Shown: positions 2-28,271, numbered from the stretch's first letter. The stretch: DNA of 55,115 nucleotides from Candidatus Aminicenantes bacterium (GCA_030669305.1 DAOVDU010000004.1:1-55115), one strand, 5' to 3'. Program-made: numbers and translations. Notes: generated from the sequence alone by a model not told the origin.

Positions 2-556
2 GATAGTGATGTTAAAACTTGGCTGGAAACAGATGGTGTGGAATTCTTCAAGTCTATTGGTATGAAAAAGGGACAGGCTGTATTGGACTTTGGTTGTGGA
101 GAAGGTCATTATGCCATACCAGCTGCAAAACTTGTAGGAGAGAAGGGCAAAATATATGCGGTAGATAAAGATGAACAGGCCTTAGATCGATTGGCACAGA
201 TAATAGAGCAAAATAATATAAAAAATATTGAAGTGATAAAAGAAGAATCAAAAACTTCCCTAGAAAATAATTCTGTAGATTTCATTCTATGTTACGATGT
301 TGTCCATTATTTAAAAGACAGAAAGATCATTTATCATGAACTCTATAGAGTTTTGAGACCAGAAGGGATATTTTCTCTTTACCCTATGCATCACAAAAAT
401 GACTATCCTTTGATGGAATTAGCTAATATGAAATTGGAGGATATCATAAAAGAAGTCGAAGAAGCAGGGCTTTATCTGCAAGATAAATTTTTAAAAAGGC
501 TTATTCACGATGATTATTATAATGACGGCTATATACTGAATTTTAGAAAGGATTAA
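2..556 (+). CDS. Class I SAM-dependent methyltransferase (5' end probably cut by the window edge)
   Basis: VLDFGCGEG SAM motif I, YAVD and VDFILCYDV motifs. The frame is open from nt 2 (DSDVKTWLETDG), so the true start probably lies just upstream of the window. Confidence 0.85.
   Translation, partial: DSDVKTWLETDGVEFFKSIGMKKGQAVLDFGCGEGHYAIPAAKLVGEKGKIYAVDKDEQALDRLAQIIEQNNIKNIEVIKEESKTSLENNSVDFILCYDVVHYLKDRKIIYHELYRVLRPEGIFSLYPMHHKNDYPLMELANMKLEDIIKEVEEAGLYLQDKFLKRLIHDDYYNDGYILNFRKD
350..440 (+). repeat. Direct repeat copy 1 (91 bp, inside the methyltransferase gene)
   Basis: 77/91 identical to 5249-5339 by manual alignment, including a 28-nt perfect core GCATCACAAAAATGACTATCCTTTGATG. Confidence 0.9.
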
Positions 557-789
557 TCATGGAAACTTCTAATTGGGATAGCTACATTGAATTTCAATCA
601 TTCCTATCTTTGTGTTCTTATTCTTAGCCGTTTGGCTTCCCTGTTGCTTGAGTGATATAATTTTCCCTCTTTTATTTGTCCCGGCTACAATGGAAAAAAT
701 ACAAAAAGAACCTTCACAGATAAAAAATAAAAATTGTGGATGAATAATAATTAATAGATTTTAGAAATAATAGAGAAGGAGGCTAAAAA

Positions 790-1713
790 ATGCAGAATCG
801 GGATATAATTGTGATTGGTGCAGGACCAGCTGGTCTTACTGCAGGCATCTATCTAGCTTATTATGGCTTTGATACAATAATTTTTGAAGAAAAAATCCCA
901 GGAGGAGAGGCAGCTGAAATCCCTCTCCTTGAGAACTTTCCTGGTTATAGTGAGGGAATTACCGGGAAAGACCTCGTTGATAAAATGGTACAGCAGTGTA
1001 AAAAAGCCGGAGCAGAAATACATCAATTCGAGAAAGTAATTGAATTAAACCTTAAAGACAAAAGGAATGTTGTAAAGACGGAAAAATCTGTCTATACAGC
1101 TGCCTCTGTAATTATCGCTTCAGGAAGACATGCGAGAGTGCTTGGAGTGCCCGGTGAGAGTCAATTCCGAGGTAAAGGCGTAAGTTATTGTGCAGTATGC
1201 GATGGTGCTTTTTTTAAAGAGAAGAAAGTAATTATAGTAGGAGAGAATAGCCGGGCAGCAGAAGTTGCCATATTTCTTTCTGGATTGGCATCTCATGTGA
1301 AACTGGTTTGTGGGAGAGATAAATTATGTGCAGAGAGGATTCTTATAGAAAATCTTGAAAACCAGAAAGTAGAAATTCTGCATGATATGGAACTCAAAGA
1401 AATCAAAGGAGATATTAAAGTAAAGAGTGTCGTTTTAGTTGACAAGGCAACCGGGGACACAAAAGAAATAGATACTGATGGGGTATTTTTTCAGCTAGAA
1501 GGCATTCCTAACAGCCAAATAGCAAGAGAATCTGGGGTAAAAGCCGATAATGATGGCTATATTCTAGTTGACAATAGGGGAAGGACAAACATTGATAGCA
1601 TATATGCAGTTGGCGACATAACCGCCTGTCCAACAAAGGTAGTAATAACAGCAATTTCCCAAGCTACTTCTGCGGCTGTTGATGTAGTAGAGCATATCAA
1701 TAAACATATTTAA
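790..1713 (+). CDS. trxB: Thioredoxin reductase-family flavoprotein with a degenerate NADPH site
   Basis: GAGPAG FAD motif, GKGVSYCAVCDG redox CxxC and AVGD second FAD motif. SD AAGGAGG upstream. Confidence 0.85.
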   Translation: MQNRDIIVIGAGPAGLTAGIYLAYYGFDTIIFEEKIPGGEAAEIPLLENFPGYSEGITGKDLVDKMVQQCKKAGAEIHQFEKVIELNLKDKRNVVKTEKSVYTAASVIIASGRHARVLGVPGESQFRGKGVSYCAVCDGAFFKEKKVIIVGENSRAAEVAIFLSGLASHVKLVCGRDKLCAERILIENLENQKVEILHDMELKEIKGDIKVKSVVLVDKATGDTKEIDTDGVFFQLEGIPNSQIARESGVKADNDGYILVDNRGRTNIDSIYAVGDITACPTKVVITAISQATSAAVDVVEHINKHI

Positions 1714-1759
1714 TGCCGAACATAACTCATCTTTTAATTATGAGATTAACTGAAGGGTA

Positions 1760-3541
1760 ATGAATAGTAAGAAAGAAAAACGAATTGGTATCTTCATCTG
1801 TCATTGTGGTAAGAACATAGCTGGAGGCCTAAATATAGAATCTTTAGTCGAAAGCTCAAGACAAATACAGGGAGTTGTATATGTTATTGATAATAAGTTT
1901 TCCTGTTCTGAAGATGGTCAGGTCGCCATCCAGAAGGCAATTCAAAATCAGAAATTGGACAGAGTAATTATAGCTGCATGTGATCCTGCTTTGCATCTAA
2001 TGACTTTTCAAAGATGCGGTAAAAAAGCTGGAATAGAGCCAGGATTTGTGGATTTAATTGACATCAGAAAATGGACTATGCATGGAAGTCCGCATAGAGT
2101 CGACCCAGAACAAGCATTTGAGAAATCAAAGAAGCTCATTGAGTTAGCTGTAAAAAGGATGCGCTTAAAACGATTAATTCCTTTGGTTGAAGTAAAGGCT
2201 GAGCAATCAGTTTTGGTTATTGGAGGAGGTGTAGCCGGGCTGGAAGCAGGCTTAGATTTAGCGGATAAAGGTTATAGAGTGTATATTGTTGAACGGCTAC
2301 CGACTATTGGGGGGAAAATGGCGTTACTTTACAAGGTTTTTCCAACAAACGATTGTGCCCCCTGCATATTGGCCCCTAAAACAGCATATGCCAATATACA
2401 CCCTAATATAAATTTGTTAACCAACTCAGAAGTAAAGAGTGTAGAGGGTTATATAGGGAACTTTGACATTAAAGTCATTCAGAACCCACGATATATTGAC
2501 GCAAAAATGTGTACTGGCTGTGGAGAATGTATAGAAAAATGTCCTTCTAGAGTGATAGACAATGTATATTCGGCTGGAATGGGAGAGAGAAAAGCCATAT
2601 ATATTCCTTATGATCAGGCTATCCCAAAAAAGGCTATTATTGATGCTGAACACTGTCTTTATCTTAGAAGCGGTGCTTGCAGCTTATGTGAAAAGGTATG
2701 TCCTACTGATGCTATAGATTTTGAGCAACGAACTAGAACAATCAAGCTGAAAGTGGGGGCTATAATTGTTGCCACAGGTTTTGATGAATATAATCCTACA
2801 GAAAAAAGTGAATATGGATACGGACGATATGATAATGTCATTACTCAATTTCAACTAGCAAGGCTTTTAGACATTGATGGTCCAACAAAAGGTAAGCTTT
2901 TGAGACCGAATGACGGTAGGGAGCCAAAAAGTATTGTTATGATCCAATGTGTTGGTTCACGCGACGAAAATACAAATGCTTATTGTTCCAATATTTGCTG
3001 TATGTATGCATTGAAACATGCCCAGATGATCAGAGAGATGGTTTTGCCTGATACTGAAATCTATATTTGTTATATAGATATGCGTACAACGGGTAAAGGC
3101 TTTGAAGAGTATTACAGAAAAACCAGGGAGCTCGGTATCAATTTTATCCGCGGAAGACCCAGCGATATCATAGAAGAGACAGATACAAGAAACCTTATTT
3201 TGAAAGTGGAAGATCCTGATATCGGTAGACTCCTAAAAATAGAAACAGACTTAGTTGTTCTCTCTTGCGCCACGATCCCATCTTCAGGCACAAGACAGCT
3301 CTCGCAGATTCTACAAATAAACTTGGATGAAAATGGCTTTTACAAAGAAGTTCATCCTAAGCTTCGTCCTGTAGAAACAAATGTTCGCGGAATTTATATA
3401 TGCGGCGCCGCACAAGGTCCTAAGGACATTCCGGATTCGATAGTTCAAGCCAGAGCAGCCGCTTCCTTTTTGGATAAAGAGCTAAGGGAAGCTAAAATAA
3501 AGCTTCCCGAATATATAGTAAAAGCAATAAAACTAAATTAA
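1760..3541 (+). CDS. hdrA: Heterodisulfide reductase subunit A family (HdrA-1; no C-terminal ferredoxin domain)
   Basis: CHCG N-terminal domain, GGGVAG, FPTNDCAPC, inserted 2x[4Fe-4S] motifs, QCVGSRD..YCSNICC and GPKDIP. Confidence 0.93.
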   Translation: MNSKKEKRIGIFICHCGKNIAGGLNIESLVESSRQIQGVVYVIDNKFSCSEDGQVAIQKAIQNQKLDRVIIAACDPALHLMTFQRCGKKAGIEPGFVDLIDIRKWTMHGSPHRVDPEQAFEKSKKLIELAVKRMRLKRLIPLVEVKAEQSVLVIGGGVAGLEAGLDLADKGYRVYIVERLPTIGGKMALLYKVFPTNDCAPCILAPKTAYANIHPNINLLTNSEVKSVEGYIGNFDIKVIQNPRYIDAKMCTGCGECIEKCPSRVIDNVYSAGMGERKAIYIPYDQAIPKKAIIDAEHCLYLRSGACSLCEKVCPTDAIDFEQRTRTIKLKVGAIIVATGFDEYNPTEKSEYGYGRYDNVITQFQLARLLDIDGPTKGKLLRPNDGREPKSIVMIQCVGSRDENTNAYCSNICCMYALKHAQMIREMVLPDTEIYICYIDMRTTGKGFEEYYRKTRELGINFIRGRPSDIIEETDTRNLILKVEDPDIGRLLKIETDLVVLSCATIPSSGTRQLSQILQINLDENGFYKEVHPKLRPVETNVRGIYICGAAQGPKDIPDSIVQARAAASFLDKELREAKIKLPEYIVKAIKLN

Positions 3542-3556
3542 GGAGGCTCATAAATC

Positions 3557-3820
3557 ATGGAAGAAGTCTACGTGGAAGAATTTATGTCTCCTGGATGTGT
3601 AGGATGTCCAGCAGTCAAAGCAATGCTTGAAGGATTATCCGTTGAATTCAAAGACAAATTAATAGTTGAGGAAGTGGATATCACTGTGGATACTGCAAGA
3701 GCGACACAATACGGCATAATGTCAGTTCCTGCTTTAGCTATCAATGGTATCCTTAAATTTGTGGGCGTCCCCAGTAAGGAGGAACTAAAGAAAGCGATTT
3801 TGGAGGAGATTGAAGGATAA
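3557..3820 (+). CDS. Small thioredoxin/glutaredoxin-like protein
   Basis: CVGC motif, SVP cis-Pro, FVGVP. SD AAGGAGG upstream. Confidence 0.88.
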   Translation: MEEVYVEEFMSPGCVGCPAVKAMLEGLSVEFKDKLIVEEVDITVDTARATQYGIMSVPALAINGILKFVGVPSKEELKKAILEEIEG

Positions 3821-3827
3821 AAATAAG

Positions 3828-4355
3828 ATGAAGCAGGATAACAGTCAAAGTGAACCTATTCGGATATCAAAGCTTGATCCAAAATTTAAATCAGAAGTTA
3901 TGAAACACAAAGATGCTCAGGGATTAAATGCTTGTTTTGCCTGCGGAACCTGTACTGCTGGATGCCCTGTTCATGAAATATTTCCTGAATATGATCCAAG
4001 AAAGTTGGCTAAAATGGTGAAACTGGGAATGAGAAAAGAAGTACTGAGTATTCCTTATATTTGGTATTGTGTTACCTGCCACAATTGCGAGCAACGCTGC
4101 CCACAGAATGTAAAGTTCTTTAATATATTGAACGTGTTAAAAAATATGGCAGCAAAAGAGGGCTATGCCCCTTCTCCATGGGTTGAACAAACTCAGCAGA
4201 TTATGCAAACAGGCATAGTATTCCCTAAGGATGAAGAATTGGCTAAAAAGAGAGAATCCTTTTTTCTTCCAGTTTTAAAAAGTGACTGTAAAAAGGCCAA
4301 AAAGCTGATCGAGTTAGCAGGCCTTGATAAAATTAAAGCAAAGAAACAAAGTTGA
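3828..4355 (+). CDS. hdrC: Heterodisulfide reductase subunit C
   Basis: CFACGTCTAGCP and WYCVTCHNCEQRCP. ATG at 3828 is preferred over TTG at 3810. Confidence 0.9.
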   Translation: MKQDNSQSEPIRISKLDPKFKSEVMKHKDAQGLNACFACGTCTAGCPVHEIFPEYDPRKLAKMVKLGMRKEVLSIPYIWYCVTCHNCEQRCPQNVKFFNILNVLKNMAAKEGYAPSPWVEQTQQIMQTGIVFPKDEELAKKRESFFLPVLKSDCKKAKKLIELAGLDKIKAKKQS

Positions 4356-5246
4356 ATGAATAGATATGCTTTATTTCTAGGTTGCACTACTCCAACCCAA
4401 GTCATTCAATACGAGCTTTCTTCTAGATGGGTTTGTAAACATTTAGGGATTGAGCTAGTTGATATCGACGATTTCGTCTGCTGTGGAATCAACCAGATCA
4501 ATTTAAGTCAAGAAGCAGGATTGATGTTAGCAGCAATGAATTTAGCTCACGCTGAAGCAAAAGAGTTAGATATTCTCACGCTCTGTGCTGCATGCACTGG
4601 AGCTTTAGCAGAGGCTGTAGAAAGTTTAAAGGATCAGGAAACTAGAGATAGAGTAAATAGGAAATTGCAAACAATAGGCCTAAAATATAACGGAAGAACT
4701 AAAGTGAAACATATTTCAAGAGTTTTATATGAGGATGTGGGGATTGATAGAATAAAAATAAAAATAAAAAGAGATTTATCAAAGTTCCGAGTCGCCCCTC
4801 ATTATGGCTGCCACTATTTAAAGCCAGAATCTGCGTTTGAAGGATTTGATGATCCGGATAACCCGAAGACCCTTCATCAACTTATTTCTGCCACTGGCGC
4901 CTTCCCTGTTCAATATGAGACCCTCAACTTATGCTGTGGAGGGAAGAGCTTTCCGATTTCCAAGGAGCCAGCTTTTTATCTGGTACAAAAAAAGCTTGAT
5001 AACATTATGGGCAAAAAAATAGACTGCATGGTTGTTCAGTGCCAAACTTGTTATCTTATGTATAGCGATCAACAAAAAGTGATAAATGGTAGGTTTAAAA
5101 AACAATATAACGTTCCTGTTCTTCTTTATCCTCAACTTCTTGGTATTGCTTTAGGTGGGGATCCGATAAATGATCTCGGACTTAATTCAAATACAGTCTC
5201 TTTGAATAGTCTTCTTGCTAAAGGAGAAATAAATAAGCAGCTTTAA
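4356..5246 (+). CDS. hdrB: Heterodisulfide reductase subunit B
   Basis: Two CCG domains: LGC...CCG...CAAC and HYGCH...CCG...CQTC. Confidence 0.92.
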   Translation: MNRYALFLGCTTPTQVIQYELSSRWVCKHLGIELVDIDDFVCCGINQINLSQEAGLMLAAMNLAHAEAKELDILTLCAACTGALAEAVESLKDQETRDRVNRKLQTIGLKYNGRTKVKHISRVLYEDVGIDRIKIKIKRDLSKFRVAPHYGCHYLKPESAFEGFDDPDNPKTLHQLISATGAFPVQYETLNLCCGGKSFPISKEPAFYLVQKKLDNIMGKKIDCMVVQCQTCYLMYSDQQKVINGRFKKQYNVPVLLYPQLLGIALGGDPINDLGLNSNTVSLNSLLAKGEINKQL

Positions 5247-5248
5247 AT

Positions 5249-5339
5249 GTTTTGAGCCCAATTGGGATTTTTTCTCTTTATCTTAAGCATCACAAAAATG
5301 ACTATCCTTTGATGCAATTATCTTATATGGAATTAAAGG
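5249..5339 (+). pseudogene. Duplicated internal fragment of the upstream methyltransferase gene (direct repeat copy 2)
   Basis: Translates to PIGIFSLYLKHHKNDYPLMQLSYMELK, compared with PEGIFSLYPMHHKNDYPLMELANMKLE in the intact gene. Starts 2 nt after the hdrB stop. Confidence 0.88.
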
Positions 5340-5404
5340 GAGCAAGCCCGTTCCCAAGTATCAGAGCTTATCACAGAAATGGAGATGTTAATTTTAAAAA
5401 TTTA

Positions 5405-5470
5405 TTGAAAAATAATTTTTTTTATAATATAAGTAAATGTTTATATAATAATATAATTATTTGCTTATTT
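5405..5470 (+). promoter_or_regulatory. Sigma70-like promoter with two tandem palindromic boxes (putative ArsR operator)
   Basis: TTGAAA(5405)-17-TATAAG(5428). Boxes ATATAA-N8-TTATAT at 5427-5446 and ATATAA-N8-TTATTT at 5451-5470. The region is AT-rich, so chance matches are possible. Confidence 0.5.
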
Positions 5471-5474
5471 TTAG

Positions 5475-5747
5475 ATGACATCAAAAACCGACCGTAAAAA
5501 AGCTGTTCAACTCTTTAAAGCCCTCTCTCATTCAACTCGCCTCCTAATTGTACAAAAGCTATTAGAAGGGGAAAAATGCGTGAATGATATCAGAGATCTT
5601 TTTGATGTGAGCCAGCCAAATATCTCTCAACATTTAAACATATTGAAATTTTCTGGAATTGTTGATTTTCTCCAAGAAGGCAATTTGCGTTGTTACTTTT
5701 TAAAAAATCCAGAAAGAATAAAAAAAATAATCCAAGCTATTAAGTGA
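5475..5747 (+). CDS. ArsR/SmtB family transcriptional regulator
   Basis: FKALSHSTRLLI, EKCVND and VSQPNISQHL winged-HTH signature. Confidence 0.92.
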   Translation: MTSKTDRKKAVQLFKALSHSTRLLIVQKLLEGEKCVNDIRDLFDVSQPNISQHLNILKFSGIVDFLQEGNLRCYFLKNPERIKKIIQAIK

Positions 5748-5837
5748 GTGGCAAGAAATCGAAGGACTAAATAGGTTTTTGCAATTAATTTTAATAAGCT
5801 TATTTATGTAAAAAAAAAACTTTTAAGGAGGTTTCAT

Positions 5838-6191
5838 ATGGCAAAAGTAGCAATTACGGTTAATGGCTCAGAACCCGGAAATGTATTTCCAGCTTTCATT
5901 TTAGGCTCTTCTGCAGTCGCATCAGGAGATGAAGTCATTATATTTTGCACTCCCGGCGGTTCTCCGGTTATGGTCAAAGGCATTATCGAAAAAATGGAAG
6001 TTAAAGGCTTGCCAAATCTGCTTGAATTATTCAATGGCCTAAAAGAACTAGGTGGAAAAATTTATGTCTGTGAACTGGCTTTAGACGCGAAAGATCTTAA
6101 AAAAGAAGATTTCAGGGAAGGCATAGAAATCATCGGCGCAACAACATTCATAAACGAAATCAAGGATGCTACTATAACTTTTTCTTTTTAA
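5838..6191 (+). CDS. DsrE/DsrF-like sulfur-relay family protein
   Basis: DEVIIFCT, GGKIYVCELAL (conserved Cys) and IIGATTFI...TFSF DsrE-like ending. SD AAGGAGG. Confidence 0.82.
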   Translation: MAKVAITVNGSEPGNVFPAFILGSSAVASGDEVIIFCTPGGSPVMVKGIIEKMEVKGLPNLLELFNGLKELGGKIYVCELALDAKDLKKEDFREGIEIIGATTFINEIKDATITFSF

Positions 6192-6245
6192 AAGAAATTT
6201 GTCCCATCGATTCTGTTAATTCTTAACCGCAAAGGAGGAGATAAA

Positions 6246-6470
6246 ATGGCATTAAAAACACTTGACACTTTAGGACTTAAGTGCCCCCAACCTATATTAA
6301 AGGTGGCAATTATGGCCCCTCAGATGAACCCAGGGGATATCCTTGAGATTCAGGCTGACTGCGAATCTTTTCCCAAGGATATAAAAGCCTGGGCTGAAAA
6401 GACCGGAAAAACTCTGCTTTTCTGTAACGATGAAGGTGGAGGAAAATTTAAAGCTCAAGTCCAATTTTAA
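6246..6470 (+). CDS. tusA: TusA/SirA sulfur carrier
   Basis: LDTLGLKCPQPIL CPxP motif, 74 aa, SD GGAGG. Confidence 0.9.
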   Translation: MALKTLDTLGLKCPQPILKVAIMAPQMNPGDILEIQADCESFPKDIKAWAEKTGKTLLFCNDEGGGKFKAQVQF

Positions 6471-6559
6471 CAGGAATCATGGTATATTCTTAACTCTCTG
6501 AGAATACATCTTCCTTTCTATCGCAGATAAAATCTAATATATAAAGGAATTGTCAGACT

Positions 6560-6985
6560 ATGAAACAAGATTTTAAACCTAACATAGTAGGCTTCTTATG
6601 TAACTGGTGTTCTTATGCAGGAGCGGATCTTGCTGGGTCAAGCAAACTAGAAATAAAGCCCTACCTATCTGTCATAAGAGTTATGTGTTCCAGTCGGGTC
6701 AATTCGAATCTAGTCTTAAACGCTTTCCTCTGGGGAGCCGATGGGGTTCTAATTGCTGGATGTCATCCTGGTGACTGCCATTATGAAAAAGGAAATTATT
6801 ATGTAAGGAGAAGGTTTGCTTTGCTTAAGAAAATTCTGGAAACATTAGACCTTGAACCAGACCGACTCCAGCTTTCTTGGATATCAGCATCTGAGGGAAA
6901 GCGTTATGCTGAAGTAGTAAATAAATTTGCTGAAGATATCACTCGATTGGGACCTAGCGCTTTTCACACTAATCCTAATATTTAG
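6560..6985 (+). CDS. mvhD: MvhD/FlpD [2Fe-2S] subunit, copy 1
   Basis: FLCNWCSYAGAD, RVMCS, GCHPGDCHY and WISASE motifs. Confidence 0.93.
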   Translation: MKQDFKPNIVGFLCNWCSYAGADLAGSSKLEIKPYLSVIRVMCSSRVNSNLVLNAFLWGADGVLIAGCHPGDCHYEKGNYYVRRRFALLKKILETLDLEPDRLQLSWISASEGKRYAEVVNKFAEDITRLGPSAFHTNPNI

Positions 6986-7001
6986 GCAAAATAGGGGAAA
7001 A

Positions 7002-8276
7002 ATGAAAAACCCAAATGTTTTGGTAATAGGATCCGGCGTTGCTGGAATGGAGGCCAGCCTAATACTAGGCGAGGCAGGACAGAAAGTCTATCTCATTGAA
7101 AAAGAATCACTGATCGGAGGTCAAACTATTAAATTCGAAGAAGTCTATCCCAACATGGAATGCGCGACTTGTATGGTTGCCCCTAAGCAACAAGAAATAC
7201 TTCAGAATGAAAACATTGAGTTGTTCTTGCTCAGTGAAGTCGAACAGGTTAAAGGCTCTGTCGGGGAATTTAAGGTCAAAATCAAGAAAAAAGCTCGCTA
7301 TGTGAGCTTAGTCAATTGCATCGGTTGTGGTGCCTGTTATGAGCCGTGTCCGGTCAGTCTTGAGAACGAATTTGAGGAAGGCCTTTCAAAAAAGAAAGCA
7401 ATAGCCGTTGCCTGTCCGGGTGCTCTCCCCAATGTTCCCGCTATTGACCCTGAAAATTGTCTTCGTCTCAACGGTAAGAAGAAAGAATGTCAGGCATGTA
7501 AAGAAGCCTGCATGTTTGACGCGATCAATTTTTCTGAAAAAGATGAAATTCTTGATCTAGAAGTAGGAGCCATCTTAATCGCAACAGGATTTGGACTGCT
7601 TGATGCCAAGAACTTACCCCAATATGGCTACAGAAAAGCCAAGAATGTCTACACTGCAATGGAGTTTGAAAGACTTTACGCAGCAAATGGTCCCACTGAA
7701 GGAAAGCTTGTTCTTAGAGATGGAGAAACACCAAAATCAATCGCTATAATCCACTGTGTAGGTCGATCTGAGCAAGGATATTGTTCAGGAGTCTGCTGTA
7801 TGTATTCCACGAAATTTTCTCACTTCCTGAAACACAAAATACCTGAGGCTAAAATCTGCGAATTTCATACTGACCTATGTATTCCTGGCAAATCACACCA
7901 GAAATTTTATCAGAAAATACTTAATCAAGGCGTAGATTTTATTCGCTTTGACGATATAAAAGTGGAAGAAAAAAATGGTAAGATGCAGGTCATTTACAAA
8001 AACGGAAATGGCGAAAAAGACAAATTCATTGCTGATATGATTATATTATCTCCTGCTATGATACCAGGAGGAGATACAGAAAGTCTGGCTAAAACTATTG
8101 GAATCAGCTTGGATAAAAAAGGCTTTTTCTCAACACAAAGTGAAAAGCTCTCTCCTGTTGCAACCGCTGTGGATGGTATTTTTGTTGCCGGATGTGCAGA
8201 AGGCCCCAAAGATATTCCAGGCTCCATCGCTCAGGCTGAAGCGGCCGCAGGAAAAATTCTATCCATCCTCCGTTAA
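7002..8276 (+). CDS. hdrA: HdrA-family flavoprotein (HdrA-2; no N-terminal or C-terminal ferredoxin domain)
   Basis: GSGVAG, YPNMECATC, inserted CIGCGAC..CP and CQACKEAC, HCVGR..YCSGVCC, GPKDI. ATG at 7002 follows AGGGGA. Confidence 0.88.
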   Translation: MKNPNVLVIGSGVAGMEASLILGEAGQKVYLIEKESLIGGQTIKFEEVYPNMECATCMVAPKQQEILQNENIELFLLSEVEQVKGSVGEFKVKIKKKARYVSLVNCIGCGACYEPCPVSLENEFEEGLSKKKAIAVACPGALPNVPAIDPENCLRLNGKKKECQACKEACMFDAINFSEKDEILDLEVGAILIATGFGLLDAKNLPQYGYRKAKNVYTAMEFERLYAANGPTEGKLVLRDGETPKSIAIIHCVGRSEQGYCSGVCCMYSTKFSHFLKHKIPEAKICEFHTDLCIPGKSHQKFYQKILNQGVDFIRFDDIKVEEKNGKMQVIYKNGNGEKDKFIADMIILSPAMIPGGDTESLAKTIGISLDKKGFFSTQSEKLSPVATAVDGIFVAGCAEGPKDIPGSIAQAEAAAGKILSILR

Positions 8277-8318
8277 GCTACGATTATTTAATGTTTTTTA
8301 AGTTGAGGATCAAAAAAA

Positions 8319-10004
8319 ATGAATGAAAAAATTGGAGTATATGTTTGTGAATGCGGACCCAACATTTCAGAAAGAATAGATATCGATAGAGTTTTGGAAG
8401 AAATATCTTCGGCAGAAGGTGTTAAAGTTGCTAAAAAATTTGGACTTCTTTGTTCCAATGACGGCAAAAATTATCTTGCAGATGAGATCAAAAAGGAAGA
8501 ATTAACCCATCTTGTTGTCGCTGCCTGCTCTCCAAGAGAACACGAACAGACTTTCATGAATGTATGCCTGGAGGCAGGTTTAAATCCCTATTTGTTCCAG
8601 CTAGTAAATATCCGCGAACAATGCGCCTGGATGATATCTGACAAAGAAGAAGCAACCAGGATGGCTATAAAGTATATCTATGCCGGAATTAGTCGCGTCA
8701 CTCTGCATAAACCGCTTCTGAAAAAAGAACTCGACAGCATTCCAGACGTTCTGATCATCGGAGGGGGTATTTCTGGCATTGAAGCTGCCCTCTGTTTAGC
8801 CGGGAAGGATCGAAAAGTATATTTGGTTGAAAAGACAGAATCATTAGGCGGAATGGTAAAAAAATTTTTCGAGCTTCTTCCTTATCAGGGATCAAATTTA
8901 GCCGTTATCGAAGAAAAAATTGAACAGGTTCAGAACAACGAAAATGTTGAGATATTAACCTCAAGCGAAGTCGAAGATGTACGCGGCTTTTTGGGGAATT
9001 TCGAAGCAGTTATCAAAAGCAAGAGTAATGGTTCAGAAACCAAAGAGATTAAAATCGGGGCTATTATAGTTGCTACCGGATTTAAGTTGTTCGATCCTAA
9101 GAATATACCACAATACGGATATGGAAAAATTGAAAATGTTCTGGATGCTTTGGAGTTCGAGCAAATGAGTGCTTCAGGAAAAATCTTGCTCAAGAACGGG
9201 AATCCACCCAAATCTGTTGCCCTTATACATTGTGTAGGTCGAAACGAAAAAGGTTACTGCTCTAAAGTTTGTTGTCTCTATTCGATAAAATTTGCCCGCC
9301 ATCTCCAAGATAAGCTACCAGGCATTGATGTGTCCGAATTTTACTCGGACCTTTGTCTTCCTGACAAAGCTGATCAGGATTATTTTGAAGAGGCAAAAAA
9401 GAAAGGAATCCATTTCATCAGGGCAGACAATCTCGAACTTAAGGAAAAAGATGGAAAAATAAATGTGGAGTACAAGGTTGCTGGAGGCAAAAAAGATAGT
9501 ATCGCCGTGGATATGGCTATACTTGCTCCTGCCATGGTGCCTTCCGAAGATACTTCAAAATTAGCTGAGATACTTAATCTCCCTCTTGATGAGACAGGAT
9601 TTTTCAAAGAAGTTCATGAAATGCTTGACCCAATCTCAACCCCGATCGAGGGCGTTTATGTGTCTGGCTGCGCCTTGGGCCCTAAAAATATTCCTGAATC
9701 GATTATACAATCTCAAGCTGCATCGGGAAAAATCCTTTCCAGCCTTATCCCTGGTAAAAAAATAGAGCCAGAAGTTAAAGTCTCCGAGATTAGAGAAGAA
9801 TTTTGCACAGGTTGCCAGACGTGTCTCTCTGTCTGTTTCTACGGAGCCATCAGCTTTGATGAATATAAAGGTATCTCAGTTGTCAACGAAGCGATATGCA
9901 GAGGATGCGGGAGCTGTGTCGGCATTTGTCCTTCTGGAGCGATCAGGTCCAAACACTTTACATATCCCCAGCTGTACCTCGAAGTTCTCCAGGCTTTACG
10001 ATAA
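8319..10004 (+). CDS. hdrA: HdrA-family flavoprotein (HdrA-3; N-terminal domain plus C-terminal ferredoxin, no inserted ferredoxin)
   Basis: VCECG...AACSP...NIREQC, GGGISG, HCVGR..YCSKVCC, C-terminal CTGCQTC and CRGCGSC motifs. Confidence 0.9.
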   Translation: MNEKIGVYVCECGPNISERIDIDRVLEEISSAEGVKVAKKFGLLCSNDGKNYLADEIKKEELTHLVVAACSPREHEQTFMNVCLEAGLNPYLFQLVNIREQCAWMISDKEEATRMAIKYIYAGISRVTLHKPLLKKELDSIPDVLIIGGGISGIEAALCLAGKDRKVYLVEKTESLGGMVKKFFELLPYQGSNLAVIEEKIEQVQNNENVEILTSSEVEDVRGFLGNFEAVIKSKSNGSETKEIKIGAIIVATGFKLFDPKNIPQYGYGKIENVLDALEFEQMSASGKILLKNGNPPKSVALIHCVGRNEKGYCSKVCCLYSIKFARHLQDKLPGIDVSEFYSDLCLPDKADQDYFEEAKKKGIHFIRADNLELKEKDGKINVEYKVAGGKKDSIAVDMAILAPAMVPSEDTSKLAEILNLPLDETGFFKEVHEMLDPISTPIEGVYVSGCALGPKNIPESIIQSQAASGKILSSLIPGKKIEPEVKVSEIREEFCTGCQTCLSVCFYGAISFDEYKGISVVNEAICRGCGSCVGICPSGAIRSKHFTYPQLYLEVLQALR

Positions 10005-10043
10005 TAGTTCTAGATAGACACGTCTGAAAAGAAGGAGAAACCT

Positions 10044-11282
10044 ATGACTGCTACTCAAATTGATAGCAATAAAATGCCAACAAAAGGAGCAATCATCCCT
10101 GCCGAAGAAGAAATCAATAAAACAATTGTTGATATATTTAAAAAATCATTAGAAAAAAAGTGTTTTGATGCAATCTTGATTCCAGTAAGAGTTCCTGAGA
10201 CTGAAGCTTATGCCTGGGTTCTGCTAAAAGACCAGTCTCTGCTTGATGAGGCAAACCCTTTACCACCGATAATCTCGGTTCAAGGAGCAAAGGCCCTTCG
10301 AAGTTTAACCAAACGTGGAAAAATGACTCAGAATATCGCTGCAATTCTAAGGCCTTGTGAGATAAGAGCTGCTGTTGAACTCTCCAAACTAAAGCAAATC
10401 CATTTAGATAATATCAGCCTAATTAGCATAGATTGCCCAGGAGCAATGCCTCTGTCAGACTATCTGGCTGACCCAGAAAAATCTAAAAAAATCTATAAAA
10501 ATGTACTGGAGAAATGGGGAGAAGACGACTCTGTCAGACCCGTATGTCATATTTGTAATCGATTCAGCCTTCCGTCTCTCCTACATCGAAAATCAGTAAA
10601 AATTTCCCCAGTTGAACAAGATGAAGCAAAGATGCCAAGTATTGATTTACACATAGGGCTTCTAGGAGGAAACCAGGAAAAAATATTTCTTATTCCTGTC
10701 AATCCTAAAGGGAGAGAAATCCTGGAAAAACTCGAGTTAAAATCCGATGATTCTTTAGATCTCTGGCAAACTAAAGTGAGTGAAGTCCAAGAGAAAAAAG
10801 AAAAGATAAGAAAAGAATTCAACTTGGAACTTAAAGAAAAAATTGAGGGACAGAAAAAGCTCACTGCTGTGTTTGATGAATGCATCAATTGTCATAACTG
10901 TATGAGAGTATGCCCTATTTGCTATTGTCAGCAGTGCTTTTTTGATTCAGATTCTCTGACTCTTTCTCCTGAAACTTATATTTCAAGAGCAGAAAAAAAG
11001 GGTGCTTTGCGCTTTCCTCTGGATACAATGCTCTTCCATCTGGGCCGGATGTCTCATATGGTACTTTCATGTGTTTCCTGCGGTGTATGCGAAGATGCCT
11101 GTCCGATGTCCATTCCTGTTGCTCAAATATTCAGTCTAGTAGCAGATCAGACTCAGAAGTCCTTCGACTACACTCCAGGAATAAACAAAGAAGAACCTCT
11201 GCCCTTACAAGATTTTCTGGAGGATGAATTTCATGAAGTAGAAACTCCCAGTGAGGCAATGACCCCCGAAGAGGTAAATTAA
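10044..11282 (+). CDS. FdhB/FrhB-like iron-sulfur protein, copy 1
   Basis: LRPCEIRA, IDC, RPVCHIC, CINCHNCMRVCPICYCQQC, and FHLGRMSH..CVSCGVCEDACP. Confidence 0.8.
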   Translation: MTATQIDSNKMPTKGAIIPAEEEINKTIVDIFKKSLEKKCFDAILIPVRVPETEAYAWVLLKDQSLLDEANPLPPIISVQGAKALRSLTKRGKMTQNIAAILRPCEIRAAVELSKLKQIHLDNISLISIDCPGAMPLSDYLADPEKSKKIYKNVLEKWGEDDSVRPVCHICNRFSLPSLLHRKSVKISPVEQDEAKMPSIDLHIGLLGGNQEKIFLIPVNPKGREILEKLELKSDDSLDLWQTKVSEVQEKKEKIRKEFNLELKEKIEGQKKLTAVFDECINCHNCMRVCPICYCQQCFFDSDSLTLSPETYISRAEKKGALRFPLDTMLFHLGRMSHMVLSCVSCGVCEDACPMSIPVAQIFSLVADQTQKSFDYTPGINKEEPLPLQDFLEDEFHEVETPSEAMTPEEVN

Positions 11283-11283
11283 A

Positions 11284-12393
11284 ATGTCTAACGTATTGAA
11301 AATAAAAAAAGGTGTTGAGCAAGGAGTTAACGAGCTTCTCAAATTCCTGTTAGAAAGCGAAAAAGTAAAGGGAATTTTCACTCTAAGAAAAATGAATGAA
11401 AATGGAGCTGTCTCTTACTCCCTAATTACTCATCCCAAAGAGCTGAAGAATGCAGTCCCCCTCTTTCCTCTTATGCCAGTGAATGCTGGAAAAATCCTCT
11501 CTGGCTTTACTTTAAAAAAAGCTATCAATGAACCAATAGCTGCTGTGCTTCGATCCTGCGAATTAAGAGCTTTTATTGAACTCATTAAACGAACTCAGGG
11601 CAGCCTGGAAAATTTTCTCTTAATTAGCTCAACGTGTGGAGGAGTTTATCCTTTAAAATCACTGACTGATGGCACATTTAAAGAACAGGTTTCTCAATAC
11701 TGGGAATCCGCTAAAAATGCCGAGATTGCATCTGACATCAGGCCTACTTGTGCGGCTTGTGAATATTTCATCCCACAGCAAGCTGATATGACTATTGCCA
11801 TAGTTGGGAAAAATGACCTGCAACAGGAATGCAGCATATTTCTAAACACTAAAAAAGGAGAAGAGTTTACCATAGGGGCACCTGGAAACATCGTCTCTGA
11901 AGAGATTGACACCAAAGAAACAACAAAATTACGGGAAAAAAGGCAAGACCAAAAAAAGAAACTTTTTGATGAATTCGAAAAAAACGGGTTCGGGATTAAA
12001 GCTTTGGTAAAGACATTTGCAGCTTGTCTGAGCTGTCATGGCTGCAGTAAAGCCTGCCCTATCTGTTATTGTACATTGTGTGATTTTGACTCTAAAACTC
12101 ATGAATACCTTCCTTCAAGTCACGAGATAGAACTAGAGCAAAAAGGTGGCATCCGAATTCCCCCTGGCACAATTTTTTTCCATATAGGCAGAATGATACA
12201 TATGGCTGTATCTTGTGTTAATTGTGGTATGTGTTCAGACGTCTGTCCGGTAAATATTCCTGTTTCGACAATTTTTTCCAAGGTTGGAGACTCTCTTCAG
12301 AAATTGTTTGACTACCTTCCAGGAAAAGATATCGAAGAACCTGTTCCTTCTGGAACGTATAAAGAAGAAGAATTTACTGAAATCGGAGAATAG
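11284..12393 (+). CDS. FdhB/FrhB-like iron-sulfur protein, copy 2
   Basis: LRSCELRA, RPTCAAC, CLSCHGCSKACPICYC, and FHIGRMIH..CVNCGMCSDVCP. Paralog of the preceding gene. Confidence 0.8.
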   Translation: MSNVLKIKKGVEQGVNELLKFLLESEKVKGIFTLRKMNENGAVSYSLITHPKELKNAVPLFPLMPVNAGKILSGFTLKKAINEPIAAVLRSCELRAFIELIKRTQGSLENFLLISSTCGGVYPLKSLTDGTFKEQVSQYWESAKNAEIASDIRPTCAACEYFIPQQADMTIAIVGKNDLQQECSIFLNTKKGEEFTIGAPGNIVSEEIDTKETTKLREKRQDQKKKLFDEFEKNGFGIKALVKTFAACLSCHGCSKACPICYCTLCDFDSKTHEYLPSSHEIELEQKGGIRIPPGTIFFHIGRMIHMAVSCVNCGMCSDVCPVNIPVSTIFSKVGDSLQKLFDYLPGKDIEEPVPSGTYKEEEFTEIGE

Positions 12394-12428
12394 TGAAACC
12401 TTGAATAATAAGACTTGAAAAGGAGTCA

Positions 12429-12860
12429 ATGGATATGAATGACGAATATACACCAAAAATAATTGGATTTCTCTGTAATTGGTGCGCTTATACAGGCGCT
12501 GATCTGGCAGGTGTATCCAGAATACAAATAACCCCTTCGCTTAGAATAATCAGAGTTATGTGTTCTGGAAGAATAGATCCACTTTTTGTTCTAAAAGGTC
12601 TTCTAAAAGGAGCAGATGGCGTTATGATGATGGGATGCCATCCCGGTGATTGTCATTACCAAAAAGGAAATTATAGCGCTCGCCGGAGATATGTTTTGCT
12701 TCAAAAATTATTTGAGGATCTTGGTTTTGAATCCGAACGTATAGGGCTCTGGTGGGTATCCGCTTCTGAAGGACCAAGATATGCACAAGTGTCTTCAGAA
12801 TTTTCAGAGGAAATAAAAAAATTAGGTCCTAATCCTGTTCGAGAAGAGATATTTATATAA
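12429..12860 (+). CDS. mvhD: MvhD/FlpD [2Fe-2S] subunit, copy 2
   Basis: FLCNWCAYTGAD, RVMCSGR, GCHPGDCHY and WVSASE. SD AAGGAG. Confidence 0.93.
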   Translation: MDMNDEYTPKIIGFLCNWCAYTGADLAGVSRIQITPSLRIIRVMCSGRIDPLFVLKGLLKGADGVMMMGCHPGDCHYQKGNYSARRRYVLLQKLFEDLGFESERIGLWWVSASEGPRYAQVSSEFSEEIKKLGPNPVREEIFI

Positions 12861-27185: not shown

Positions 27186-28271
27186 TTAGAGGATTTCCCG
27201 AATAGCACCCCTCCTGCGTGTTATTCCCATCTGATCAAGAAGCTCTAAAAGAGGAATAACATACTTCCGAGTGAGCCCGGTCATCTTTTTAAAGTCGGAT
27301 ACAGTTAGTTCTTTCTTACCGGAATTGCGAACCTTCGAGATAATCTCCTCCAGCCATCGAGAATGAAGGAAAAATCCGTCCTTTCCCTGGACTATCTTTT
27401 TTCTCTCGATGAGGAGAGAGAGCATTACATTAAGCTTCTTTGTAGAAAGGTTAAAATACTCCTTTAAATATTTTAAAGAAACAGCCTGAAACTCTCCTTT
27501 AAGGCACATCTCTTCCATCTGGTTTAAAATCTCCTTTTCCTCAGGAAGAAGGGATATTTCAAAATCAAAAAGAGCCACTCTATTTTCAATCTCTTTTATC
27601 TTAGCCTCTCGAGAAAGATATCTAAGGGCCAAAGACAGAATTCTGGGATTCAGGTCAAATCTTTTCTGAATCCTGGCAAACGATGCTCCAAGCTCATCAG
27701 GATGTTTCTTATGGAATCTCGATAGAAAGGCAATAATTTGTTCACAGAGAAACTCAAAACTCGCCTGAGAGAGAAGAAAAAGCGGAGAAAAAGCAAGGAT
27801 TCTTATCTTCCCTTCTGCCTCTAAGCCCTGGCTAAAGCGAAGAATAGACTCTCTGGACAGAGGGGAATAACTGATGATTTCCCTCTCGGTCACACCATGT
27901 ATCCCCCGATAATGAACAACCGCGAAAATCATCTGTTTTTCATCCCCAAGAAGTTGCCGAAGAAAATTTTCTCTTTTCTTTATCTTTTTTGGGGGAATCT
28001 TTTCAGAAAGCGGATTAAGAACTTTCCCCTTACCCAATATTCCCAGTTTTCCTTTCTCTTCAATCTCAAACCTATCCATCCATCTCAAAAGGAGAGGTTG
28101 AGAAGACTGTACCATAACAAAAAAATGACCCTTCCCTTCTTCTTTTGCCTGGCCATAAAAAAAGAAAGAAGCAGGAATCTTTGTTCCCCGGATACAGAGC
28201 AGCGCATTCAAAGTCTGCTTTTCAGCAGATGGAGGAACATCAATAACAGCATCAAAACAAGAATTTTCCAA
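27186..28271 (-). CDS. SelB C-terminal (winged-helix, SECIS-binding) domain protein lacking the GTPase domain
   Basis: C-terminal LTVSDFKKMTGLTRKYVIPLLELLDQMGITRRRG is the SelB WH4 signature, and FHKKHP..G is a SelB WH motif. No GHVDHGK. TTG start lies 7 nt after AAGGAG. Confidence 0.8.
   Translation of the reverse strand: MENSCFDAVIDVPPSAEKQTLNALLCIRGTKIPASFFFYGQAKEEGKGHFFVMVQSSQPLLLRWMDRFEIEEKGKLGILGKGKVLNPLSEKIPPKKIKKRENFLRQLLGDEKQMIFAVVHYRGIHGVTEREIISYSPLSRESILRFSQGLEAEGKIRILAFSPLFLLSQASFEFLCEQIIAFLSRFHKKHPDELGASFARIQKRFDLNPRILSLALRYLSREAKIKEIENRVALFDFEISLLPEEKEILNQMEEMCLKGEFQAVSLKYLKEYFNLSTKKLNVMLSLLIERKKIVQGKDGFFLHSRWLEEIISKVRNSGKKELTVSDFKKMTGLTRKYVIPLLELLDQMGITRRRGAIREIL

Follow-up and report, generated by a model that had tools for sequence, protein, structure and literature searches.

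A thioredoxin and a thioredoxin reductase-like protein encoded within a conserved HdrABC operon of a Candidatus Aminicenantes bacterium

Introduction

At positions 790-5246 of a 55,115-nucleotide contig from Candidatus Aminicenantes bacterium (GCA_030669305.1, DAOVDU010000004.1:1-55115; the whole stretch is hereafter called the window), genes for a thioredoxin (Trx) and a thioredoxin reductase (TrxR)-like protein are interleaved with the genes for the heterodisulfide reductase (Hdr) subunits HdrA, HdrC and HdrB. We refer to this five-gene set as the cassette. The host genome measures 2.06 Mb and is 91.45% complete, and the taxonomic labels of this and all other metagenome-assembled genomes (MAGs) are those given by the depositors.

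The closest described Hdr system is the MvhADG-HdrABC complex of hydrogenotrophic methanogens (PDB 5ODC), with which the cassette shares Cys194/Cys197, Lys409, the N-terminal and inserted ferredoxin domains, both HdrB CCG sets and the two HdrC clusters. In the methanogen HdrA, a C-terminal ferredoxin domain serves as the electron entry from MvhD and hydrogenase to the bifurcating FAD (PMC9012536), and Glu356 positions Lys409 at FAD-N5, a pair proposed as a marker of bifurcating enzymes (PMC12054007). The cassette differs in that it lacks the C-terminal ferredoxin domain and the mvhD and hydrogenase genes, replaces Glu356 with Ala, has the order A-trx-C-B with trxR in front, and resides in a bacterial host in whose genome McrA was not found. 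A second relative, HdrA2B2C2 of Methanosarcina acetivorans, is F420H2-dependent and works without a hydrogenase. HdrA2 is the best NCBIfam model for the cassette HdrA (707.7 bits against a cut-off of 1100), and both systems would be Hdr complexes with a mid-potential donor independent of MvhAG (PMC12054007). However, HdrA2 is fused to an MvhD and has a C-terminal ferredoxin domain, whereas the cassette HdrA matches only positions 1-568 of the 777-position model.

Among thioredoxin reductases, DvTRi, the clostridial and cyanobacterial FFTR, DDOR and the archaeal DFTR share with the TrxR-like protein a TrxR fold, a retained CxxC and degenerate NADPH motifs. The cassette protein departs from these NAD(P)H-independent enzymes in carrying a signature other than TQ/NGK and in being tied genetically to HdrA and to a Trx of its own. 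PMC5627308 describes the reductant of DvTRi as unknown. The TrxR/PDO system of thermophilic archaea has in common with the cassette a small archaeal-type Trx, and a PDO-plus-Trx fusion flanks the cassette at one locus, L002. That archaeal system is NADPH-driven and is not known to include Hdr components. Finally, DsrMK-DsrC and sHdr-LbpA, in which CCG enzymes act on sulfur bound to proteins, offer a precedent in that the partner of an HdrB/HdrD-type site is a protein thiol carrier, but the cassette encodes neither DsrC nor a lipoate-binding protein, and its gene order is unlike that of sHdr.

Because it lacks the C-terminal domain and Glu356 of Hdr, the NADPH motifs of TrxB and the TQ/NGK of TRi, we set the cassette apart as a variant of these systems and not as a member. 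No description of a trxR-hdrA-trx-hdrCB cluster was found in full-text searches, whose scope excluded subscription reviews of HdrA modules and supplements. In the relevant passages of Hdr papers, the term “thioredoxin reductase” refers to HdrA's own TrxR-like domain (PMC12054007, PMC9012536, PMC6085437).

Results and Discussion

The Cassette Is a Conserved Putative Operon with a Constant Core

The first-pass annotation had reported the tightly spaced order trxR-like, hdrA, trx (CVGC), hdrC and hdrB, and the open reading frames (ORFs) lie exactly where it had placed them (Table 1). Intergenic distances along the five genes are 46 nucleotides, 15 nucleotides, an 11-nucleotide overlap between trx and hdrC, and 0 nucleotides. 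The hdrC start is a TTG, with the next in-frame ATG at 3828, and a strong Shine-Dalgarno sequence, GAAGGAGG, provides a ribosome-binding site ahead of the trxR-like gene.

A search for conserved neighbourhoods of the hdrA-trx-hdrCB-trxB type had also been put forward as a check, and surveys with two different probes recovered them. With Trx as the probe, 20 genome loci were obtained, 13 of which have a Trx identity of at least 64%. In all 13, hdrA lies directly upstream of trx, and trxR is present in 11 of the 12 that can be tested (L012 lacks trxR and L007 is cut by a contig end). Because this survey is biased by its probe, it was repeated with an HdrA alignment on metagenome contigs. The resulting 80 loci comprise 39 with an HdrA identity of at least 66% and 41 with an identity of at most 48%. 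In the set of 39, trx directly follows hdrA in 25 of 26 testable loci, that is, those with at least 330 nucleotides of sequence downstream of hdrA; trxR is found upstream in 29 of 30 testable loci, and MvhD in none of 26. By contrast, the set of 41 has no Trx (0/32) and no TrxR (0/31), while MvhD lies downstream in 30 of 32 loci. The position of trx is thus conserved in the HdrA-based counts, and trx and the Hdr genes form a linked unit. The lack of conservation that the first-pass annotation had named as grounds for refutation is therefore not observed.

Related genomes give the same picture at closer range. A matching HdrA (77–82% identity) occurs in 11 of 250 other genomes of the window's taxonomic class. 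Ten of these are among the 59 genomes of the same family and one is among the 54 of a second family, while the remaining 137 have none; all 11 have the full trxR-hdrA-trx-hdrC-hdrB order. In a phylum sample of 300 genomes, the best other HdrB is 47% identical, and neither Trx nor TrxR occurs in any of the 29 loci fetched from that sample. The cassette is a discrete module that is patchily distributed among relatives. Chance adjacency of the five genes was considered and is ruled out by recurrence in the 13 genome loci, the 39 metagenome loci and the 11 same-class loci. Positions 790-5246 probably constitute one operon, inherited and transferred as a unit.

Three architectures can be distinguished. 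Type 1 (trxR-hdrA-trx-hdrC-hdrB) is that of the window and carries mostly bacterial labels, with the addition of L012; type 2 (trxR-hdrC-hdrB-hdrA-trx) is of the Bathyarchaeia type; and type 3, seen in L011 and L095, consists of trxR-hdrA-trx only. In all three, trx is located directly 3′ of hdrA. The HdrA of the window bacterium is 67–72% identical to those of archaeal MAGs, whereas the valyl-tRNA synthetases (ValRS) of the same pairs are only 34–37% identical, which indicates transfer of the cassette between bacteria and archaea. The host ValRS shares 70% identity with its counterpart in a MAG that bears the label Candidatus Aminicenantes, the lower values coming from two archaeal cassette carriers. 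Near-identical DNA is present in marine-sediment and cold-seep metagenomes from 12 studies.

The core of TrxR, HdrA and Trx is constant, and the CCG module (HdrCB in the window) is exchangeable between architectures. Type 1 and type 2 HdrCB are only 32–36% identical, compared with 66–69% for HdrA and 65–70% for Trx. In the archaeal-type locus L095 (3234-5915), a GlcD-like FAD protein and a 391-residue protein with two CCG domains (TfrB/LdhH-like) come after the trio in place of HdrCB, and no hdrCB was found in the flanks of L011. Many CCG paralogues are present in both of two Bathyarchaeia genomes searched, so that this search does not discriminate whether the trio can occur without any HdrB. 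A constant trio with a swapped CCG module favors a Trx couple wired to HdrA over a Trx that is a dedicated HdrB substrate.

Cassette HdrA Lacks the C-Terminal Electron Entry Domain

The window HdrA aligns with residues 2-571 of the 654-residue HdrA of Methanothermococcus thermolithotrophicus (5odc_A; 597.9 bits). Because the alignment stops at residue 571, the C-terminal ferredoxin domain is missing, as the first-pass annotation had recognized. The N-terminal Fe-S domain, the FAD domain with its TrxR fold and the inserted ferredoxin domain are all present. Complete cassette HdrAs end 7–13 residues beyond window position 585 and have no Cys there, whereas complete non-cassette HdrAs continue with tails of 75–217 further residues containing 8–14 Cys. 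In the HdrA tree, the cassette proteins form a single clade with two branches.

At the flavin site, the equivalent of Lys409 (window K419) is kept in 43 of 43 cassette HdrAs. The equivalent of Glu356 (window Ala367) is Ala in 42 of these and Gly in one, whereas Glu is kept in 26 of 27 readable non-cassette HdrAs. Equivalents of Cys194 and Cys197 and the N-terminal domain are present in cassette HdrA, as in the homodimeric methanogen enzyme.

A separate observation concerns the Cys197-equivalent position, which is occupied by Cys in cassette HdrAs. Thirteen non-cassette HdrA genes (L106-L110, L118, L123, L124, L132, L136, L137, L140 and L145) carry an in-frame TGA there (FPTxDCxx*I), and in two of the 13 the N-terminal CxC motif contains another TGA. 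The proteins encoded by these TGA-bearing genes are likely to be selenocysteine HdrAs.

The TrxR-Like Protein Retains Trx Docking Features but Has Degenerate NADPH Motifs

Low-Mr TrxRs are recognized by their Trx-docking motifs G[R/K]G and FF, by CxxC, and by the NADPH motifs GGGxxAxE (pyrophosphate) and HRRDxxR (2′-phosphate), and TQ/NGK in place of HRRD marks the NAD(P)H-independent TRi group (PMC5627308). The window protein, whose TIGR01292 score of 304.2 bits is under the cut-off of 343.45, retains a redox-active CAVC together with the docking elements G-K-G and FF, and its NADPH motifs are degenerate (GGGxxAxE has become G-E-N-S-R-A-A-E, and HRRxxxR has become C-G-R-D-K-L-C). Judged by these motifs, it is a low-Mr thioredoxin reductase paralogue that is predicted to be Trx-competent and NADPH-blind; since every Trx-docking feature is retained, this protein is where Trx would be expected to react.

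This pattern extends across the type 1 proteins. In motif counts that include near-duplicate sequences, all 42 type 1 TrxRs have CxxC, G[KR]G and FF, while GxGxxA is found in 5 and HRR in none; the 12 TrxRs of types 2 and 3 keep HRR in 10 cases and GxGxxA in 10. Within the NADPH 2′-phosphate motif (residues ∼174-181), His is replaced by Cys in 40 of the 42 type 1 proteins and the last Arg by a second Cys in 32. The signature of the cassette TrxR at this stretch is C-x-x-x-x-L-C-[AS]-E. TQ/NGK is absent from every cassette TrxR in the aligned stretch, where the window has C-G-R-D, and PMC5627308 does not describe this signature.

A phmmer comparison with PDB entries gives the NADPH-type TrxR 7aaw as the best match to the window protein (215.6 bits), with 5j60 at 145.8 bits and 6gna at 115.7 bits. 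We take 5j60 to be DDOR and 6gna to be FFTR.

In a rival reading, the two parts of the cassette are co-regulated but electronically independent, and HdrABC does no more than share the operon. The TrxR-like protein would then be a ferredoxin- or flavodoxin-dependent TrxR in the manner of FFTR or DvTRi and, with Trx and perhaps the PDO-Trx protein described below, would repair, activate or protect an Hdr enzyme sensitive to oxygen and disulfides, or serve in general disulfide stress. NAD(P)H-independent low-Mr TrxRs that use free carriers do exist and act in disulfide and oxygen stress (PMC5627308). ArsR-family regulators, a small S-adenosylmethionine (SAM) methyltransferase and TauE-type exporters that recur beside it lend the cassette the flavor of a stress operon, and a ferredoxin gene accompanies one subclade. 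Against this stand the near-obligate linkage to a single HdrA clade without an input domain of its own, a linkage that is tighter than general maintenance would call for, and the lack of TQ/NGK, along with far lower scores against FFTR than against NADPH-type TrxRs. In addition, the genome already contains a canonical Trx system: contig C72 carries a canonical trxB (375.8 bits, above the cut-off) adjoining a 113-residue trxA. Given this separate pair, the cassette pair is a second, specialised system. On balance, we regard electronic independence as rather unlikely.

The Thioredoxin and Its Relation to HdrB

The 87-residue Trx is of the archaeal type, with the active site S-P-G-C-V-G-C-P and a cis-Pro at V57-P58. 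C14, C17 and P58 are invariant in 14 of 14 Trx sequences, as are CxxC and V-P. The nearest solved structures are the 85-residue archaeal proteins 1nho (80.4 bits) and 1fo5 (64 bits), and the TIGR00411 (MJ0307 family) score of 82.1 is below the cut-off of 92.75. Typical Trx dithiol/disulfide couples lie near −270 to −300 mV.

Both CCG stretches of the window HdrB score above the Pfam cut-off, and ten Cys (C10, C42, C43, C77, C80, C152, C193, C194, C229 and C232) are invariant in 13 of 13 cassette HdrBs, which bears out the earlier assertion that both CCG domains are intact. HdrC likewise has eight Cys that are invariant in 13 of 13. Both subunits score below the NCBIfam equivalog cut-offs for CoB-CoM (coenzyme B-coenzyme M) Hdr subunits, with HdrC at 102.1 against 160 and HdrB at 233.9 against 345.15. 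Aligned with 5odc_B (197.3 bits), the window HdrB is collinear with the methanogen protein, with few gaps and equal length.

In another rival reading, Trx is a direct disulfide substrate, reduced or oxidised at the two HdrB non-cubane clusters. HdrABC would then act as a thioredoxin reductase linked to ferredoxin, with the TrxR-like protein as an auxiliary route. Trx is the sole thiol/disulfide carrier encoded in every cassette, and the overlap of trx with the hdrC start suggests translational coupling. DsrC is not a consistent partner, as it is found in only two of six cassette genomes searched, the host included (one of five others, which are of unknown completeness), and McrA was not found in the 91.45%-complete host genome. 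Moreover, Fe-S-mediated disulfide cleavage is common to Hdr and plant-type ferredoxin:thioredoxin reductase. However, no part of the cassette is less conserved or less constant than HdrCB, which diverges between types, is missing from the flanks of L011 and is replaced in L095. The methanogen HdrB active site takes small molecules, and proteins known to serve CCG enzymes as substrates do so through flexible arms (the DsrC C-terminus, lipoamide); the window HdrB has the same length as the methanogen protein. With a complete Trx-docking TrxR encoded alongside, HdrB would also be redundant for Trx. We therefore consider a direct Trx-HdrB reaction to be distinctly improbable. The first-pass annotation had offered the embedded Trx as the HdrB substrate or shuttle; trx indeed proves integral to the operon, but a role as HdrB substrate is weakened by the swapped HdrCB and the Trx-docking TrxR.

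A Proposed Thioredoxin-Linked Hdr Complex

Our preferred interpretation, held tentatively and at slightly less than even confidence, is that the cassette encodes an Hdr-type Fe-S flavoprotein complex in which the usual electron input has been swapped for a private Trx couple. HdrA has lost its C-terminal ferredoxin domain and the bacterial form of the TrxR-like protein its NADPH-binding motifs, two deficits that would complement each other. The TrxR-like protein would exchange electrons with the Fe-S/FAD chain of HdrA instead of with NADPH, such that the Trx dithiol/disulfide couple becomes the mid-potential two-electron partner of HdrA. Ferredoxin would dock at the inserted ferredoxin domain of HdrA, and the CCG module, HdrCB here, would handle a further disulfide. 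Electrons might flow either way, with oxidation of Trx(SH)2 driving the reduction of ferredoxin and a disulfide, or with ferredoxin driving the reduction of Trx and PDO-type proteins.

This proposal is supported by the finding that the HdrA clade without the input domain and without mvhD always carries Trx and almost always TrxR, by the constancy of the trio while the CCG module varies, by the TrxR motif pattern of type 1, by the separate canonical trxB-trxA pair of the genome, and by the extra Trx-fold proteins (such as the ∼350-residue protein with a C-terminal Trx domain) and the ferredoxin gene that flank the cassette at some loci.

Several considerations weigh against it. The replacement of Glu356 by Ala may mean a loss of bifurcation. 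The link between the TrxR-like protein and HdrA is one proposed from gene association, and free ferredoxin could itself be the reductant of the TrxR-like protein, in which case no contact with HdrA would be needed. Archaeal architectures retain an NADPH-type TrxR, as seen in the HRR counts above, although their HdrA is equally truncated; loss of NADPH binding is therefore not required for the association of TrxR with HdrA. Fused TrxR-HdrA or Trx-Hdr proteins were not found in a weak search of a Trx query against longer proteins, in which none of 158 candidates reached E ≤ 1e-8. There are also exceptions to the linkage: L091 has no trx within 401 nucleotides after hdrA, L101 and L012 have no trxR upstream, and L011 has no hdrCB in its flanks. 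Prediction of a complex between HdrA and the TrxR-like protein gave a score of 0.00 in two runs for which controls were not run, and bears neither way.

The cassette might also encode a Trx-dependent, flavin-based bifurcating or confurcating Hdr, although we judge this doubtful. Here, Trx would be fed through the NADPH-blind TrxR, docked at the lost C-terminal ferredoxin/MvhD site, and would be the mid-potential partner of HdrA, linking the thiol pool energetically to ferredoxin and, at the CCG module, to a second disulfide.

Neighbouring Genes and Expression Signals

Flanking genes vary between cassette loci, though some recur. In the window, the cassette is followed at 5475-12860 by a second redox module that comprises an ArsR/BigR-like regulator, a DsrE-like protein, TusA, MvhD, two HdrA-like proteins (449 and 561 residues), two Fe-S/FrhB-like proteins and a second MvhD. 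This module is not kept beside the cassette in other loci. The first-pass annotation had considered coupling of the cassette to persulfide reduction with TusA and DsrE, and a sulfane-sulfur circuit of this kind would have the cassette reduce persulfides or polysulfide on TusA, DsrE or DsrC with Trx as a shuttle. Beyond the proximity of the regulator, DsrE-like protein and TusA in the window, such a circuit could draw on a host DsrC homologue located beside a CCG protein, with DsrA not found in the host genome, and on TauE-type exporters that flank the cassette in L077 and L083. However, tblastn screens revealed no DsrE or TusA match in any of 63 other cassette loci (13 + 39 + 11), and DsrC is rare among the other cassette genomes, as noted above. 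Furthermore, arsR-dsrE-tusA is separated from hdrB by a 228-nucleotide AT-rich gap with its own promoter-like site before arsR. The suggested TusA/DsrE coupling was not borne out, and we consider a sulfane-sulfur function highly improbable.

Promoter-like sites in the region (21) show no excess over shuffled sequences (19.3 ± 4.1), and terminator-scan counts are likewise not above shuffles. The same scan found no terminator-like site between hdrB and arsR, and the sigma-70-like candidate upstream of the trxR-like gene (Table 1) is weak evidence.

Table 1. Positions of the cassette genes and adjoining features in the window.
Feature	Position	Strand	Size or description	Evidence or remarks
trxR-like	790..1713	+	307 aa	TIGR01292 thioredoxin-disulfide reductase, 304.2 bits; Pyr_redox_2, 8.3e-45
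hdrA	1760..3541	+	593 aa	HdrA models, 708/608/553 bits
trx	3557..3820	+	87 aa	TIGR00411 (MJ0307 family), 82.1 bits (cut-off 92.75); Thioredoxin_3; CxxC is C-V-G-C
hdrC	3810..4355	+	181 aa	TIGR03290, 102.1 bits; two CxxCxxCxxxC motifs
hdrB	4356..5246	+	296 aa	TIGR03288, 233.9 bits; two complete CCG motif sets (10 Cys)
Promoter candidate	632..661	+	sigma-70-like, TTGGCT-18-TATAAT with TG, upstream of trxR-like	10/12 matches, weak evidence
SAM-methyltransferase gene relic	5264..5334	+	directly 3′ of hdrB	71 nt, 88.7% identity to 365-435
Small class-I SAM methyltransferase	2..556	+	intact gene except 5′ end, cut by contig start	recurrent accessory neighbour of cassette

In two sets of 12 and 16 loci, 3 and 4, respectively, encode a protein of ∼350 residues with a C-terminal Trx domain. 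Its gene directly follows hdrB in L002 (7731-8786), L003 (7727-8776), L071, L077, L078 and L080, and precedes trxR in L006 (1790-2845). The L002 copy, the sole one scanned with NCBIfam, consists of a PDO-like part (∼210 N-terminal residues) and a canonical C-terminal thioredoxin; the same-length proteins at the six other loci were recognized from Pfam matches alone. The genome of the window has an orthologue of the L002 PDO-Trx protein with 78% identity on contig C18 (7018-8067), and in both L002 and this genome the gene after PDO-Trx encodes a MinD/ParA-type ATPase that carries Fer4 domains. A 179-residue Trx is encoded before trxR in L009 and L075. A 2×[4Fe-4S] ferredoxin gene lies beside the cassette in 3 of 28 loci (L006, L081 and L084), and ArsR-type regulators recur there as well.

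Intact SAM-methyltransferase homologues are located after hdrB in L006, L081, L083 and L084. In the window, the 71-nucleotide stretch that resembles such a gene (Table 1) is, by this similarity, a relic that marks a rearrangement at the cassette 3′ end. An 81-residue ORF at 5252-5497 is probably not a gene.

The bacterial origin of the window is evident from genes elsewhere in it for DNA polymerase III alpha, Pol I, PlsX/FabF, an AMIN-domain amidase and a SelB fragment, the last being an ORF at 27186-28271 on the minus strand that matches only the C-terminal winged-helix domains of SelB. On another contig of the host, C103 (7302-9517, 26468-27187), a DsrC homologue is encoded beside a 462-residue CCG protein, and the same contig carries a ComA (phosphosulfolactate synthase) homologue. 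ComA was rejected as a marker for coenzyme M because it is non-diagnostic, the same model matching Bacillus subtilis and Corynebacterium glutamicum controls. The absence of dsrC, proposed earlier as a check together with that of coenzyme M genes, does not hold for the host genome.

Conclusions

For HdrABC outside methanogens and sulfate reducers, few physiological partners have been established, and the cassette operon names a candidate, thioredoxin. It bears on two questions, namely the reaction partners of non-methanogen Hdr and the reductant of NAD(P)H-independent thioredoxin reductases. Uncultured lineages that are widespread in marine sediment and cold seeps carry the cassette, and it has moved between domains, which suggests that it is selectable as a self-contained module. 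If the cassette does encode a Trx-dependent bifurcating Hdr, thioredoxin reductase systems would gain a new class, and Hdr enzymes a first member with a protein dithiol as donor or acceptor. Such a system would moreover be one that can pass between Aminicenantes-like bacteria and Bathyarchaeia-type archaea in anoxic sediments.

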